This document shows positions 3,240-51,556 of a stretch of 64,000 bases of DNA, in pieces. The notes beneath the pieces were generated by a model. It was given only the letters and a program-made list of their open reading frames with translations, had not been told where the DNA came from and did no database searches. The stretch is from Lama guanicoe (lineage: Eukaryota), in the NCBI GenBank assembly GCA_013239625.1, contig MU053513.1, positions 1,724,927-1,788,926 of the forward strand. Reading direction: 5' to 3'. Position numbers and translations under genes: made by a program. Numbering within the stretch: position 1 is the first letter of the stretch; each line of letters opens with the position of its first letter.

Positions 3240-6200
3240 GTTTATGTTTAATAGTTTTAAAATATAATCAGGTACATTTATCTATACTGTGCATGTTTAA
3301 TTATTCGAAAATAAATCTCTTCAATGGAAGTCCCAAATCAAGAATTTTTATACGCAGGGAAGCCCTTCCCGCTATCTGGTGTCTTCATCCCTCTCTGTGG
3401 CTCAGTGCATCTGAGCCCTCGCCAGGAAGTGGTGGGCAAGGGGTATGTCTGAACAGGGACAGATGCACGTACGTCGGAACGATACATCTGTACTGTGTTC
3501 AACCAGAAGGCTTTCTGTGATTAATAAAAACACAAATATTTTGACTTTACTCATCACAAAACTGTTCTCTCTCGCAGTCAGTACAGAAAGAAAACATACA
3601 CTTTTACACTTGGTTTCCAGGCCTCTGCAGTTGTCTGTGTTCTCAGTGCAGATACATGTGGTCTTAAAGGAGACTGACAGCTCCCAGTGAGCAGGGTCTG
3701 ACGGGACAAGTGGGACCTTGTAAGCGTTGTATAAAACAGGCAATCCAGCAGCAAGATGCACCATCACTCTTTTATTTGGCAGCAGTAGACATACATCCGG
3801 GTCACAGCGCTCACTCTGGCTAACGAGCCAGCGCTCTTCTCTTCCGCCACTGTAGTGTTTCACTTTTACAGAACAAGTGCAGTCCTTACATTTAGGACAC
3901 AGACACATCTACTGATACCAGCCAGGTAAAGCTAATATGTGGTTGTCCTCAAACTAAGCAAAACAATAACATAACATAATCATTAGGAACAAAGAATGTA
4001 TGCCCTCATTTCAGTTAATCACAGATCAAATTCTTGAGTCTCACATACAGAGATATTTCTAAATTTGATTAATCCAAGCAAAAAAAAAAGATTTTAATTC
4101 AGCCTAATTCTTATCACTTTGAAATGTATATTCCAAATAATTTCCTAATATGCATTCACATTAAAATAAAAGCAAATTATGTTATGAACATAATTTAAAT
4201 TTTTTGATTATGAAAAGTCACAGAGAAGTATATTAAATGTTACTTTGGCATTCCTATCTCACAGGTTTAAAGGAATGATAAACAAAAGAATTCTTTTTAA
4301 TGCAAATAATCCCCCCTTAGGTAATCATTTAAATAGAACATCTAACATCTTAAGGCAAGAAAAAGCTTGTAAATATTTTTTATAAAGTCAGTTAATTCAG
4401 CAAATTAATAGAAACATAATAAATGGATGCAAATAAAAAATACTTCTTTATGAGAGAGAAAGTTCTTTGGAGCTGACTATAACAGTACGAAAAACTTGCC
4501 TTTTTTAAAAAAACCCATTTTGACACTTAATAAACATACCATAAAGCCTTCAAGAATCAATAACTAGGCTTTCAGTTTAACAAAAATGTAGAGAAACCAA
4601 AATAGAAAAAAAAAATCACCAAATATAAATCACCTGAACACTTATCTTTTTCCTTCCAGAAAATAGGAGGAAAAAAAGCCATTTTCTGAGGACTCATTCA
4701 AGGCTCTTATAATTTATACAGGGAAGCAGATGGTAGGACTCATGGTAACAGTGGCAATTTTCTGATAATACTACCATGAAAGTGCTAAACAGGATTTTAT
4801 CCTAAAAGGCCCTAGACTAGTTTACTTCTTTTTTATTTTTTAAAACATTGCTTTAGCTGTTAAACCCATTTCTAGGCAAACTGAAATTGGTCCATATGCC
4901 TTAAGTACTCTTCTGTGCTCAGAAACATTTTTCTCTTTCATTCTTTCTCTTTCGAGAAACATTTTTAAGAGAGGTTTCTTTAGAAAGGTCAAGTTTCTCC
5001 CCTTACAACAGAGAGGGATTTTTTTTCTGTACTTACTACCCTGAAAGTCTATTTGGTCACTCTTGTCTCTTGTCAAAGGCCACAAAGAAAGCATCTTACT
5101 AAAGCGCTGCTTCTGAACTGACCTGAAACTCAAGCACTGAATTCGACAAACCAATCTCTTAAATATGGGCAACTTTTTTTTCAAGGTGAAGTGTAAAGGA
5201 GGAAAAAAACACCTTTTGGAAGGTCATTCATCTTATCTGATGAAATTCCCCAGGTTATTTCATAGTAGCAGCATTATTAAATAGTGCAATTCTTCAAAAC
5301 AGACTTCAAACAGTATCTTCCTCAAATAAAAGAAGTAATTAAGTTTCCTTATAGGTTTGTTTATAAAACCACAGCCTAAAACATGAATTAAAACCATCAG
5401 CCCCCCCCAACCAGGAAAATTAACGTAAGCAATAACTATCTTGCTTACACAATAAAGGGACGGGTGTGCGTGCACGTGTGGGTATGTGTGTGAATCATTC
5501 AAGGCCAGTGGCACCTCAACAAGAAGCTAAAATACAGGAAAAATTAAGAATTCTGAACAGCCAATTGTTAAATTAAGAATATAGGTAAGAAAAGTCAAGG
5601 AGCTATATAGTCAAAAAATATTAGAGCAATGTTTCATATTGTTTAATGCTGTAACCTATACATTACAGAACACAGTACGTGCAAACAGCACAAGGATTCT
5701 GAACCTCCTATTTTGTAACTAATATTACATACATAAACTTAAAACCTTAAAAGATTATGCTTTTCCTCCACTTTTCATTTTCTATTCATTAATCAGAAAC
5801 TAGGCACTTTAATCTAAAAATACATTTTAAAAAAATATATTTTAGATCCTTCTTGGTAACTCACTCCTAAAATGAGTAAAGCCTACTTTAGGAGCAAAAT
5901 CAACAAATCCAATCCACTGATGATATACTGAGTCAGCCACTCTAAATAGTGGCATACGATTTAGACACAAAATTAATACAACTCTGAAAATATCTAATAT
6001 ACTCTGAAGAACCTTACTCATGTGAATACCTCATTATATACCTCATAGATACACATCTATGTATCCTGAAGGACAGGAAATACACTTCTATACCATTAAA
6101 AAATATTCTGTTCTATATTCAGGGCAGAAAAAACCTTCTTTAAGACCTCTGTAAGATTCAATGTATGAATATTTCTAAAATATGGGCATAATATGACAAA

Positions 6201-7112
6201 TTCCCAGTGTGCTAAGTTCTCTGTGGAAATAATTAAAAGCCAGTTTTGTAGAAAGAGAAAGAAGAAATGATTTTACTGTATCAAGATTCATACCTTCAGT
6301 GGTTGGGAGATAGTTTCAAAACTACAATAACTGCCTGTCATAGTTAATAAATGTTCTATTTTTAACCATTATTTATTGAAGGGAAATGCTCTCATGTATA
6401 CCAAGATAAAAGAAAAAGTCTTCAGTCTAACTTATAGGATCAACAGTAATATATTTTGGGAACTGCAGTAAATCTAATATAAACTTATAAACTTCTCAGT
6501 GGCAATTCATTTAAATGTTTTATAACGATACTCAGCCATTACGGTGTCTTTGATTCAAATACTCAAGCACATGCACAAGCAGGAACGTCAGCAGCACATG
6601 TTCAACGCCACTACTGCCTGACCGTGATTAAACAATGAATGACATCACAAGTAAAACTACATCTCCAGGCAAAGTTACGTTTGTTGACACTACACGCAAT
6701 ATATTCTTGCATGTGTGGGCCACAAAAGTCTTGGCTAAAGTATCTATCTTTACGGTATAAAGCACGAAAACAAAGCTTTTGAGAGTGAAACTGGACATTT
6801 CAGACAGCTTCAAGACGACAAATCCATTAATTCCCAAGTACTGGTTTCAATTCAAGCAATATTTCTGTAAAATATACAACATTTCACAACGATTATTACC
6901 TAAAGATTATAAAAAGACACTTTGGATACACTACACAGGGATTCAATGACAGAACTTCTGTGTAAGTACAGTACAGTCACTCATCCTTTACTAGATTTTT
7001 TTTTTTCCCTCCCTGAGTCCAGGTCGACCAATTCTGTGTCACATATGTAACAAATCAATAGTTACCTTGAGATATTTCATAGCACACTCAAATTGTCTGA
7101 CTTTTACGGTAC
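3240..7112 (-). other. MIGA1: Probable long MIGA1 3'UTR (distal end uncertain)
   Basis: AT-rich stretch with no recognisable repeats downstream of the stop; minus-strand AATAAA near 3771-3776 and ATTAAA near 3248-3253; the true cleavage site cannot be determined from sequence. Confidence 0.45.
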
Positions 7113-13022: not shown

Positions 13023-14335
13023 CTAAATGTATACAGAAGAGAAAAAGCAAGATTTAAATTTATTAACTATATAAACTTCCCATTTAGAAAACAGCGATTT
13101 TTATTAGAAAGTCAACATTTAAAGGTCTAAAATGTGTAAGACATTAACTACTAAAAAGAACTAGTCTATGTTCCTTCTGTTGTTTGTAAGCATTAATGAA
13201 AAGGTGTTTATAAATTTTAAAATTAAATACAAAGCCATTAGAAGAAAAAGGCTGAACTCTGGTGCCAAGAACTTGGTGATTATAGTTCAAACAGTATTTT
13301 TCTTCAGTAACAGTCCTGCTGGAAATAGTTGTGAGTAGACCCAATAGTTTCACTCAAATTAAGAAACACAACCATAATGACAGGGACAAAAACACCCAAG
13401 CAGATTCTGAAGAAACCTGACCCCACTCTAGCAGGACCCAACTTTGATCAGGTCACTTTCCCAAATCAGTTACAGAAATGGAGAACATGTATCTTTTATG
13501 GTTAAAACATACTTTGAGGGAGAAGTGGATTTATTAAAAATGCTTCAAAGTACAATAGCAGGAATTTCCAAAGTAACTGTGAAATAGCAGACTGGAACAT
13601 TTTTTAAACAGGCATTCAAACTTCATAATGAATCCCACCTACTCTGAGGTACACATTTCAGCCAAACAACAACAACAAAAGTTAGATTTGAACGTGAAAC
13701 ACAACAGAAGCTGAAAACATTCAAAATACAGAATATCGTTTACTCCTGTTTTATTTTCGCACATGCCCCTATTTTTTTCTGCCCTAATTTTTGGTAGTAT
13801 TTGGGAATAAGAATCTGTATTTTCCTCCAAAAATAAGTATCGTTCTTTTCATTGAAACTGCTATATTGCAGTGTAGTCACAGAGCCATTTCAGTTACAGA
13901 CAGTTTTTGGTTAGGCCTGAACTGGTACGAAGCCTGAGGGTTTTCTTCTGAAGAAATACTGGGTCCTTGGGGTGAAGGCAGGGACTGACAGAAGAGCCAA
14001 AAGGGAATTTTTTTTTTTACATTGTTTATTGATTCATAATCATTTTACAGTGTTGTGTCAAATTCCACTGTTCAGCATGTTCAGCACAATTTTTCAGTCA
14101 TTCATGGACATATACACACTCATTGTCACATTTTTTTCTCTGTGATTTATCATAACATTTTGTGTATATTTCCCTGTGCTATACAGTGTAATCTTGTTTA
14201 TCTATTCTACAATTTTGAAATCCCAGTCTATCCCTTCCCACCCTCTACCCCCCTGGTAACCACAAGTCTGTATTCTCTGTCCATGAGTCTATTTCTGTCC
14301 TGTATTTATGCTTTGTTTTTGTTTGTTTTTGTTTT

Positions 14336-19979: not shown

Positions 19980-21158
19980 TCCGTTGGCCCCCTCTTCTGT
20001 GCTGCTCCCAGCACCTGTCGGCAAGCAGATCGCGCCTCCTCCTAACACGGGGTCAGATGCAGCTCTCCTCTGCTGCGGGCGGGCGGGTCACTGCCCCTCC
20101 GGATGCCGCAGTCAGATGTTGCAGACTGGCCAGGCAGGAGGGCGGGTCGTGCCCCCTCCCAGCACCTCGGTCAGGGGTTGTGTTCCTGCCCGACAGGCGG
20201 GGGGGCCGCTCTCCCCCTGCCTGCGCTGCTGGTAGCTCCGCTGCTCTGCGCGGCTGCGCGCTCTGCGCCGGCGCTCCGCCCTGGTCGCGCTCCACGGGTG
20301 GGCTCGGGGAAGACCAAGGGGCAGCCTCATCCCTGCTCCGAGCCAAGACCCAGCTGCTTGTTTGTCTTTGTGGAGCAAGTTCTCTGGGGGACCAGAATGG
20401 AAGGATCCTATCTGCCCCGGGCTGTAGGCCCGTCTCAGTCTGGCCCTTGAGGCTGCTAAGCCCTTCGGTGCGGACGCAGGTTTCGCCTCTGCCCCCGCCT
20501 GGGTGCTAAGCGCTGGAGAATATGGCGGCTCTGCCTGGGCCCCGCCCCTCTTCCCCTGAAAAGTTTCCGCGGGTTTTCAGAGATGGGGGTGTGCACCCTT
20601 CCCCCGAGAGCACATCAACCTTGCTGTTTTATGGAGGGCCCAGGTTGTTCTGTCCTGTACACCCACAGCCACAGCGCCCAGCCCCTTGCAGTCCCCTGGA
20701 GCTGCCTCCATGCAGCCGCCCCCGTCCTCCACCCGGCTTGTGCAGCCTGGCCCTGCCCGCCGCTGCCGGCCCGCGTCTCAGGCTGGGTGTCGGGGGGACG
20801 CTCTGTGCCCGTTTAACTTAGTTCTGTCAGACAAGGGCTGCTCTGTACAGATCCGAGCCTCGGAGGCTCCCCCTCCGTCCCGCTGGCCTCTCAGTTGGAG
20901 AGGGGAGACCCAGCGAGCGAGCGCCAGTCCTCCTTTGCCGCTCCCTCCCCGCGGGACCCGTCCCGCGCTGCTTTGCCTTTTGTTCTTTCTTTTTTCCTTT
21001 TCTCCTACCAGATTTTTGGCGTCTTTATCTTCTGAAGAGGGCGATGTTCTGTCGGAGTTCCGCAGGTGCTCTGGTTGGCTGAGTGGGTCTGTAGATGTGG
21101 GTCTTGGTGTATTTGTGGGAGAGGGTGACTTACAAGCGTCCTTCTACTCCGCCATCTT
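19980..21158 (-). promoter_or_regulatory. L1 internal promoter / CpG island
   Basis: GC- and CpG-rich segment in AT-rich surroundings; YY1 site at the 5' end; GC boxes. Confidence 0.85.
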
Positions 21159-21346
21159 CAAAAGGGAAATTTCATCTGAAGATGTTACGTATCATATACA
21201 TCTGATCGCAGTATCAAAGAATGAGCTCAGTTTCCACTCAGGTCATTCTATGGACCATATATATATATATAAATCTTATTTATCTTTCCAATTCTGACTA
21301 TTTCTCATCAAATTTAAATGGTTGAGAAAGGTAAACCACCACTTAC

Positions 21347-38153: not shown

Positions 38154-39397
38154 CTTAAAAGTAAAAGATGGAAAGTTTAGAAACTGACATTCCTTGTCAT
38201 TGCCATATTTCATATTCTATAGCTCGTTTTTCTTTTTCTTTTCTTTTTTTTTTTTACTTCAGTCTCTATTTAGGATACTGGAATCTAAAAGGAAAACAAT
38301 ACAAATCAATGGGATATAATCTGACAAGACTCTCAAAGTGATTCAAACTGATTCTGAACACTGCCAAGCCAAGGAGAAAATGCTGTAAAGAAGACATTTT
38401 TATTTTAAAAAGGGATTAACTATTTCAGATTTTAAAAACTTTTGAGTATAATATAATTTAAGCTGATATATAATAACGGAGTTGAATTATACATGGTAAA
38501 ATCAGTATATACCAAAGATAGCCTGAAACAGAGCAATTTAAGTTGCAAGTGGCCTTGCCCAAATTGGGAGAACTGGTAGGTTCATTCAAATTGGATGAAT
38601 CATTAGCATAACATGTCTGGCCAGTCACCTGTGATAAACAGATCAATTAACATAATTCAAAAAGACCTGATTTCTTTGGTCTTTAAGACCTACTTTAAAA
38701 CACTGAAAGGCCCCAAATGATCAGGTTTAGGTTCCTCATGTTCATTCTGCTTACCTGACAGTCAAATATAACTGCCCCAATGATTTTAAAAGGCTGAAAA
38801 AGTTTAAATGCATTTGCAAATGGTTAATCTGACCCTACCAAGACAGGATACCTATTAACAGTACGCAGTATTCTGAATGTGGATGTCAGTATCTTCACAT
38901 ACCACCATCAGGGATCTAACTGTTAACATTAAATTTTCAAAAATTGAGTATTTGCTTATAGCTGTGACTGCATTGTAGCAAACAAATGATATTCTCCAAA
39001 TCTTATCACAAGTATGAAAAAGCAAAGGACAAAATACATACAGATTTTTGTTTTGATTCTCAATCTGCTAAATTTGTCAGATACTGTACTTTCTTTAAAA
39101 AGACACCAGAAATTTTTTTTGCTTTCATTCATTCAGATTTCTATTCCATCATTTTTTCCAAAATAAACTTCATTATTTTTACCAGAAGTATACCAAGTCC
39201 TGTTTAAAAAATTCAACTACCAGAAAACAGACATTTTGTGATTCTCTACAAGAAGTGTAAAGTTTTTAAAAATCCTAACCATTAATTTAGTTGAAACTCA
39301 CAAGTTTTGCAACCAATTTATATTCCAAGCTCTAATCCAAGCAGAGGAATGAACTGGTACAAAGCTCATTCGTATTAAGTATAAAAATAACCATACA

Positions 39398-39948
39398 AGA
39401 GCAGCCAAGATGGTGGAGTAGAAGGATACTATTAGCTCACCCTCTCCCATGAATACACCAAGAGAGACGTCCATGGACCCACCCATTCTTAAAAACACCT
39501 GCTGAACTTTGACAGAACATCGCCTTCTTCAAAAGACAAAATTCCTCCCAAATGCTGGATCCCAAGAGAAGCTACTTCATCCTAGTTGCTGGGGAGCCAT
39601 TAATAGAATCAGTTGTTCAACATGGTCCATTTGTGATGAACACAGATGAAGAGATTTCTCAGGCCATTCTTGATTTCAGAAATGCAAAGAATGGGTTTGT
39701 AAGAGCCAAAAGTTAGAAATCAAAGACTAGAGACTAGCGACAACCCCAAGGGCAGGTCTGGCTGACTTCTAGAATTTTGCCATTGATGGCATCCACCCAT
39801 TCAGTGCATCCAATTTCCAGAGCTGACTTCGCCAGTGCTTCTAAAGAATTCCACACTAAAGTGATAATGTGGTTTTAACAGCAATGTCTGTGAGATAGTT
39901 TCTGACACACAAAAATAAACTGCATTGTTGCTTCTTTAAAAAACAAAA
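39398..39948 (+). pseudogene. PIR: Chimeric retrocopy: L1 5'UTR leader (39398-39557) + pirin C-terminal coding part and 3'UTR
   Basis: 39558-39737 reads DPKRSYFILVAGEPLIESVVQHGPFVMNTDEEISQAILDFRNAKNGFVRAKS*KSKTRD* (pirin C-terminus with one premature stop); AATAAA 39914-39919, A-rich tail, TSD ..AACCATACA ending at 39397 and 39963. Confidence 0.9.
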
Positions 39949-41059
39949 AAACAAAACCATACACGTAGCATATATTTTTCTACTTTACATTTGGTGGGAC
40001 CATAGTTGACATTTTAAGCACACATCTTTCAACATTAAATTATAATTTTTTTCAAATAAAGCTTACATCAATCCTTTTAAAGTAACTAACTTGTCAGTTT
40101 AAAATCCTACTACTAAATGATTATTAATAGAACAAAATCTGAGGTTAAATTATTTTCAAAAGGACATGTTCCTTTAGAAATTTAAATTTTTTCATCAAAC
40201 TTAAGATCAACATAACTTTTACACTTATAAATAGTTATAAAACTGGTATTTTGGGATACTGAATTATCCAGAAAAATTTGCAGTATTCTCTTTTCAGCAC
40301 ATACATGATTTTCAAAAATGCATATATACAAACTTTGACAGATCAATTAACTACAGAATTGAATCAACATTTACAACTTTCAAGCTCTTATCTTCTTAAT
40401 TATATTCCATTATTAGTATTAATCCTGCAAAAAAGAAATGATAGTACAGTTTTCATTATGTCAAAGCACATTTAAAGTGGGGTAAGTTACAAGTGAATTA
40501 AGTTAAATCTAGGTTCCATATGCCTTTTGCTATTTTCAGAGTGGAACACAGACATTTATCTTGGGTCTCTTTACCTTTCAGACATTACACATGAGCTGTT
40601 AAAAGTCTGTTTTACTTCATTCAACAGGAATCAGTCATTCAATGTCATCTAGATCAGTTACCCTGCTTGTACTTAACTTAAAAAAAAAACTAACAAAGAA
40701 AAACAGCTTGGAGGAACTGGAAAGTTTTATTCATTAAACCCAACTTTATAAGCGAAAGACCATGCCTCTCATTTCAGTAATTGTTATGATTCCTGGAATG
40801 GCAGCTTAAGAATTAAGAAGAGAAATAATACCATCTGTTTTTTAGATAAGCCAGTAAGTATAAAGAAAGAATACTGGACAATATCTCAAATTAACTGCTT
40901 TCATGCACCCAATTAAAATTTAAAATACTCTTTCTAAAAGTATTATCAACTCTTGATTATTATTCAAAGACATGGACAGCACAGCCAATTGAAATCCAAA
41001 GGCTTTATCTTAGTCAATATTTCCAGAAATTGCTAACAAATTTTTCTTAGCAGGAAAAA

Positions 41060-50762: not shown

Positions 50763-51556
50763 CAAATGCTGGAGAGGCTGTGGAGAAAAGGGACCCTCCT
50801 ATACTGCTGGTGGGAATGCAGTTTGGTGCAGTCACTGTGGAAAACAGTATGAGATTCCTCAAAAGACTTGGAATAGACTTACCATATGACCCAGGATTCC
50901 CGCTCCTGGGCATATATCCAGAAGGAAGCCTACTTCAGAAACACACCTGCACCCCAATGTTCATAGCAGCACTATTTACAATAGCCAAGACATGGAAACA
51001 GCCTAAATGTCCATCAACAGATGACTGGATAAAGATGTGGTATATTTATACAATGGAATACTATTCAGCCATAAAACCCGACAACATTATGCCATTTGCG
51101 GCAACATGGATGTTCCTGGAGAATGTCAAAGTGAAATAAGCCAGAAAGAAAAAGAAAAATACCATATGAGATCGCTCATATGTGGAATCTAAAAAAAAAA
51201 AAAAAAAAGCATAAATACAAAACAGAAATAGACTAACAGACATAGAATACAGACTTGTGGTTGCTGGGGGGAGGCGGGGGGGAAGAGAGAGACTGGGATT
51301 TCAAAATTGTAGAATAGATAAACAAGATTATGCTGTATAGCACAGGGAAATATATACAAGATCTTATGGTAGCTCACAGAGAAAAAAATGTGACAATGAA
51401 TATATGTACGTTCATGTATAACTGAAAAATTGTGCTCTACACTGGAATTTGACACAACATTGTAAAATGACTGTAACTCAATAAAAAAAAAGTAAAACAA
51501 ACAAAAAAAAGAAGTAAACTTCTGTTATCTAAAACACAAAACAAAACAAACAAAAC
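50763..51556 (+). mobile_element. Young 5'-truncated L1 (ORF2 C-terminus + 3'UTR) with short extra 3' segment
   Basis: Highly similar to 14008-14770; TSD agtatttgtccttca at 50748-50762 and 51557-51571. Confidence 0.92.

Follow-up and report, generated by a model that had tools for sequence, protein, structure and literature searches.

An insertion of about 550 bases on the plus strand of the window (the 64,000-nt stretch of Lama guanicoe DNA analysed here, C1064:1724927-1788926) joins an L1 5'UTR leader to the last exons of the pirin gene, PIR. At the joint, the host side is an exon acceptor and the L1 side is a position normally followed by GT. Splice sites on both sides of a joint are what spliceosomal joining is expected to leave. 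The interpretation of the insert as a splice chimera is supported, and a spliced L1/PIR fusion RNA, whether formed by cis- or by trans-splicing, very probably served as its template. The preliminary description had read the locus as an L1 5'UTR donor spliced onto the last PIR exons and then retrotransposed. That reading agrees with the splice sites at the joint and with the use of the same donor elsewhere in the genome.

In the proposed mechanism, RNA synthesis would be driven by the promoter inside a full-length L1. The spliceosome would then join the L1 5'UTR donor to the penultimate PIR exon at its acceptor, with normal splicing to the last PIR exon and polyadenylation at the PIR site. Finally, the L1 machinery would copy the chimeric mRNA of ca 540 nt into the chromosome by target-primed reverse transcription, leaving target-site duplications (TSDs). 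The most likely route would be cis-splicing from a sense full-length L1 once located in the intron preceding the penultimate PIR exon, an insertion that either failed to reach fixation or has since disappeared. We consider such cis-splicing from a lost intronic L1 to be likely. The location of the source L1 and the firing of its own promoter are what we infer. No L1 body is present in the PIR copy, so that copying of the RNA must have occurred in trans, as for a processed pseudogene.

Anatomy of the insertion and its PIR part

The composite occupies positions 39398-39948 (plus strand) as a single insertion. It is bounded by a 5' TSD, AAAAATAACCATACA (39383-39397, plus strand), and a 3' TSD, AAACAAAACCATACA (39949-39963, plus strand), the latter defined by sequence reading and match statistics. 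The two copies match at 13 of 15 positions, and an exact 9-mer adjoins the insert. Only 39 out of 20000 random 15-mers from the window (0.2%) reach 13/15 anywhere in the A-rich 48-nt 3' flank. A single TSD-bounded insertion with these limits had been claimed before, and the match statistics argue for it. The 5' TSD is preceded by AT, corresponding to a nicked bottom strand TTTTT/AT. The L1 endonuclease prefers TTTT/AA, and the nick site fits this preference. Direct reading of the sequence shows that one TSD pair encloses both the L1 and the PIR parts, and that neither an A run nor a second TSD is present at the internal joint (39540-39575).

At its 3' end, the insert carries a short A-rich tail (39938-39948, plus strand). 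The tail begins where the parent 3'UTR ends (gcttcttt), 18 nt after AATAAA, at the point where the parent sequence diverges. All hallmarks of a processed pseudogene are therefore found together: an intronless exon joint, an A tail at the parent poly(A) site, TSDs and a T-rich nick. In the 2.05 Gb of genome searched, the composite is the sole PIR-type retrocopy; the one other such locus is the PIR gene itself, on contig C3385.

The PIR part starts with a copy of the 67-nt penultimate exon, from the first base of that exon (39558-39624, plus strand, by comparison with the C3385 gene). It continues through an intronless joint into the last exon (39625-39937, plus strand), which comprises the coding end and the 3'UTR with AATAAA at 39914-39919. 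The coding portion corresponds to the last 59 pirin codons. The translation of 39558-39713 (DPKRSYF...RAKS) aligns to residues 232-282 of 290 in the human pirin chain 1j1l_A (E=2.3e-24). The intronless pirin C-terminus, 3'UTR, AATAAA and poly(A) described earlier were all found.

The parent gene is on the minus strand of C3385. Its last exon (1308201-1308515) is 88% identical to the copy. Its 67-nt penultimate exon begins near 1313603 and ends at 1313537, with a BLAST match over 1313537-1313598 (89% identity). This exon is bordered by cctgactttag/GATC and ATATG/gtaagc, and the last exon follows ctgctctag. Position 39558 corresponds to the first base of the penultimate exon, after the pyrimidine-rich ctttag. 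The preliminary description had placed DPKRS at the start of the penultimate coding exon, and the borders of the parent exon agree with this; a junction in the middle of a PIR exon, which would have spoken against splicing, is not what is seen. The internal joint of the copy (39624/39625) is equivalent to ATG/gtaagc ... ctctag/GCC in the parent, where the two exons are ca 5 kb apart. Matches to the N-terminal (cupin) domain of pirin lie upstream of the captured exons, at C3385:1374728-1392873, and the match of the Pirin_C profile is confined to the last two parent exons. Overall, the PIR part shares 325 of 369 aligned bases with the parent (88% identity, K2P 0.13), and its 3' end is the end of the parent 3'UTR. 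At 39558-39572 the copy encodes D-P-K-R-S, as does human pirin, and the parent gene of this genome (L003) encodes D-L-E-R-S. Judging from these sequences, two residues of the parent PIR were apparently replaced once the copy had formed.

An ATG at 39552 is in frame with the pirin C-terminus, as the preliminary description had noticed. This ATG depends on an extra G that is missing from 26 of 27 unspliced L1 copies, and the frame is closed by a premature TAG at 39714-39716, where the parent reads TGG. A functional retrogene would have an intact frame comparable to that of its parent; the copy has 59 C-terminal codons and this TAG. The frame linking the ATG to pirin arose by accident in this copy and carries no weight; the L1/PIR composite is not a gene but an old, dead pseudogene. 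A Pirin_C profile match reaching back to 39513, inside the leader, was taken as an over-extended alignment and not as coding sequence.

L1 leader and its splice donor

The L1 part (39398-39557, plus strand) was delimited by alignments to genomic L1 copies. It represents the first ca 157-160 nt of the L1 5'UTR: the L1 5' terminus is marked by GAGCAGCCAAGATGG, and the last bases on the exonic side of the donor are AAATGCTG. All 40 matches that were scored, from at least 2155 first-look candidates in the genome, are 86-100% identical to the leader. This agrees with the start of an L1 5'UTR, ca 160 nt long, recognized earlier in the insert. Toward 29 L1 loci that were fetched, identity is 86.6-91.4% (mean 88.6%); toward the long L1 of the window itself (21158-21006, minus strand), it is lower than toward these fetched copies.

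The 5' end of the leader coincides with that of L1. In 16 of the 29 loci the alignment starts at leader base 1 or 2, and the sequences preceding that point vary between loci. The likeness among the 29 loci begins at G(G/A)AGCAGCCAAGATGG and the insert begins at AGAGCAGCCAAGATGG, within 1-2 nt of the start of the L1 copies. This coincidence indicates that the RNA began at the normal L1 5' end. A 5' end at the L1 transcription start, here marked by GAGCAGCCAAGATGG, is also a feature of hybrids formed from L1 sense donors.

Downstream of the leader, 27 of the 29 loci run on into the L1 5'UTR, and two (L014 and L030) do not. Among the 27 unspliced copies, a count that includes L012 and L013, apparently the same sequence filed twice, the dinucleotide following AAATCTG is GT in 19 cases, AT in two, TT in two, and TC, CT and GC once each, with one deletion. 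Leader-like matches of a genome pattern scan mostly read CTGGTAGG at the donor. The reference leader, from the long L1 of the window (21004-21165, minus strand), has CTG/GTAGGA with the GT at 21008-21007, as the preliminary description had it. An L1 subfamily devoid of GT at the junction would have contradicted splicing; the 19 copies with GT show that this is not so. The donor, AAATCTG/GTAGGA at about +157 of the L1 5'UTR, is of moderate strength, matching the consensus MAG/GTRAGT at 6 of 9 positions. The leader of the insert carries an extra G (AAATGCTG instead of AAATCTG). L1 homology ends at CTG or at CTGG, and the one shared G leaves a 1-base ambiguity in the position of the joint. Since everything but the leader lies downstream of the donor at +157, spliced products retain the 5'-terminal part of the 5'UTR, which may contain the promoter.

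The leader, with 86.6-91.4% identity to sister L1 copies, appears to be about as old as the PIR part, which is 88% identical to its parent; a single event predicts such equal ages. The insert might otherwise combine a 5'-truncated PIR pseudogene with a separate L1 5' fragment that came to lie beside it in an unrelated event, or be the outcome of a rearrangement at the DNA level. The adjacency itself, and nothing else, speaks for this. Besides the equal divergence, the single TSD pair spanning both parts and the lack of an A run or a second TSD at 39540-39575 argue against it. L1 insertions keep their 3' ends, so that a lone 160-nt 5' piece devoid of a tail does not look like an L1 insertion product. 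We regard this possibility as extremely improbable.

Template switching has also to be considered. Buzdin et al. reportedly described, in 2002, chimeric retrogenes of the U6/L1 type that arise in this way. Here, the reverse transcriptase would have left the PIR mRNA for an L1 RNA at about +157 and continued to the 5' end of the latter. The insert resembles such chimeras as a bipartite retrocopy within one TSD pair, with both parts in the same orientation, and the shared G at the joint could be read as microhomology. However, a template switch would need a chance break both at the first base of a PIR exon and at the L1 position preceding GT, which other elements also use as a donor. In template-switch chimeras the second template is joined at its 3' end, whereas in the insert the joint is at an internal point of L1. 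Moreover, U6/L1-type break points are arbitrary and unrelated to splice sites, unlike the joint observed here, where both sides are splice sites. Template switching is thus very improbable, although slightly less so than two separate events.

Reuse of the donor and search for the source L1

The same donor was found in a family of mini-L1 elements of ca 330 nt, in which the leader is joined to an AG acceptor located ca 180 nt before the L1 3' end. In L014 and L030, the leader extends to AAATCTG and is followed by ATAAACAAG and the last ca 180 nt of the L1 3' end. The unspliced acceptor GAATAG/ATAAACAAG is seen at 3/3 places where the window has such an L1 3' end: at 51316/51317 in the reference 3' end (51301-51497, plus strand), and at 14203/14202 and 11662/11661 on the minus strand. 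These unspliced AATAG/ATAAACAAG ends show that the mini-L1 joint links the donor to an AG acceptor. This junction is intramolecular, in cis. L014 is flanked by a TSD of its own.

A 345-nt mini-L1 query matched 40 further places, 39 of which span the joint; the remaining one is a partial match beside another match. The joint was present in all 30 loci that were fetched. A 24-nt joint pattern (up to 3 mismatches) gave at least 73 matches in the genome versus 2 for a backwards control. The family (L014, L030 and L046-L075, for example G000:C9228:155172-155516, minus strand) includes two leader variants. Its joints often read CCG or CCA instead of CTG, a variation that, from the sequences, looks like CpG decay.

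A second type of product associates the same donor with an LTR-like repeat (L076, G000:C5396:4316150-4316680, minus strand). The leader is followed by this high-copy repeat (3450 first-look candidates), entered at an internal TTTCAG acceptor, just after GGTTTCAG of the repeat. The chimera ends at the AATAAA of the repeat with an A-rich tail; three other copies of the repeat run on. L077, which had been considered as another chimera, proved to be an ordinary L1 5'UTR.

The L1 expected to have donated the leader was looked for in the parent gene. The scan covered 80 kb of the present assembly devoid of N (C3385:1313400-1393399), starting at the penultimate exon and extending past the N-terminal cupin exons. 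The L1 leader was not found there in either orientation (blastn, word size 7, E<=1e-3). In blastn comparisons of this region with three queries (the leader, the complete insert and the 5'-most 1.17 kb of the window L1), only the captured exon was matched. The full 7.1-kb window L1 matched truncated or antisense pieces only, among them several short ones besides the two described next. The earlier prediction of a sense L1 5'UTR in the preceding PIR intron is therefore contradicted in the scanned region. The only sense L1 piece near the captured exon (C3385:1313768-1314994, 79% identical to the window L1) is located ca 170 nt upstream of it. In its present form it is not the source: it is 5'-truncated, covers L1 positions 5571-6781 and has no 5'UTR. 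A PIR intron also harbors a 4.4-kb antisense L1 (C3385:1318487-1322894) with 98.6% identity to the window L1 (14022-21165, minus strand), a degree of identity showing that the L1 family was active recently.

Since the leader is absent from the scanned part of PIR, either the source L1 was a lost allele or the leader derives from an L1 transcribed elsewhere in the genome. In the second case, trans-splicing from this same donor would have linked the leader to the acceptor of a separate PIR pre-mRNA, with subsequent retrotransposition of the spliced RNA. The predicted junction is identical, and the lack of a source L1 in 80 kb of PIR is directly accounted for. Trans-splicing has been proposed in a preprint for human mRNA/L1 chimeras whose host gene has no L1 (10.1101/2025.02.02.635956). 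On the other hand, it is nothing unusual for a sense full-length intronic L1 to be lost or to remain unfixed, mini-L1 elements are joined in cis, and the L076 LTR chimera fits cis-splicing equally well. Trans-splicing is, moreover, rare in mammals. We consider it unlikely here and favour the loss of the source L1, with cis-splicing of its leader onto the PIR exons.

Relation to known L1 chimeras

Hybrid transcripts linking an L1 5'UTR splice donor to cellular genes were reportedly described by Belancio, Hedges and Deininger in 2006 (NAR 34:1512). According to a later article that cites these authors, the L1 5'UTR contains splice donors and low-level hybrid RNAs between L1 and cellular genes occur (PMC2896524). 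The PIR copy is similar in that an L1 donor on the sense strand joins a leader to host exons (PMC2896524). As in the hybrid transcripts, a GT donor closes the L1 part and the host part follows an exon acceptor. Such transcripts also call for a sense L1, complete with 5'UTR, in the intron that precedes the captured exon; none is seen in the scanned 80 kb of the present assembly. The hybrids, as presented there, are RNAs or ESTs from human cells, whereas the PIR copy is germline DNA of another mammal, with a different 5'UTR and a donor at about +157.

SpIREs (spliced integrated retrotransposed elements) provide a second comparison. Larson et al. 2018 found 116 human SpIRE97/622 copies (PMC5860796). 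There too, an L1 RNA spliced from a 5'UTR donor was retrotransposed and left its splice joint in DNA. The SpIRE acceptor is inside L1 and the L1 body is kept, whereas in the PIR copy the acceptor and all 3' sequence come from the host (PMC5860796). The mini-L1 family, with its acceptor and 3' portion within L1, is SpIRE-like, but nearly the whole element has been removed (PMC5860796).

A third comparison is with mRNA/LINE-1 chimeric insertions (5' transductions). These are TSD-flanked with joints at splice sites, 6/17 of them ending at exon donors; the source L1 is sometimes missing from the gene, and both cis- and trans-splicing are discussed (10.1101/2025.02.02.635956). The PIR copy shares with them the TSDs, the association of gene exons with L1 and the joints at splice sites. 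The order is reversed, however: those chimeras have host 5' exons followed by the L1 body, whereas the PIR copy has the leader followed by host 3' exons and, unlike them, is devoid of L1 coding or 3' sequence (10.1101/2025.02.02.635956). Our searches of open-access text listed no description of an L1-leader/host-3'-exon retrocopy.

The L1/PIR copy is best viewed as a rare fossil of L1 capturing host exons, extending known processes of L1 splicing and retrocopying. A germline fossil of an L1-leader/host-3'-exon mRNA would show that hybrids of this kind entered the germline, received their poly(A) tail at the host site and were taken up in trans by the L1 machinery. It would also mark an L1 insertion, or a trans-splicing event, no longer visible in the parent gene. 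Taken with the mini-L1 elements and the L076 chimera, it defines a donor in a non-primate L1 that could be studied in splicing and promoter assays.

More speculatively, the leader might be a portable 5' module, transcribing itself, that repeatedly captured host and LTR exons and, through splicing to the L1 3' end, founded a self-spreading, non-autonomous mini-L1 family of ca 330 nt; the PIR copy might even record trans-splicing. We hold this broader scheme to be possible but rather doubtful. Human SpIREs, in contrast to such a module, are described as promoter-defective by Larson et al. (PMC5860796).

The donor could also serve as a probe to count L1 exon capture genome-wide. The preliminary description had suggested a scan for other fusions of the leader to host exons. 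Two pattern scans for further chimeras gave 10 matches (control 0) and 85 matches (control 13), mostly decayed L1 or mini-L1 copies. Nine candidates were chosen by eye and three of them, L081, L082 and L083, were examined. L081 and L082 were chance matches with no leader. L083 (G000:C4389:18508340-18508640) has an L1 leader ending in CAAGCCTG, followed by low-copy DNA in which bases 1-43 match C6970 or C5475 and bases 45-203 match C5673. L083 may be a third exon-capture retrocopy.
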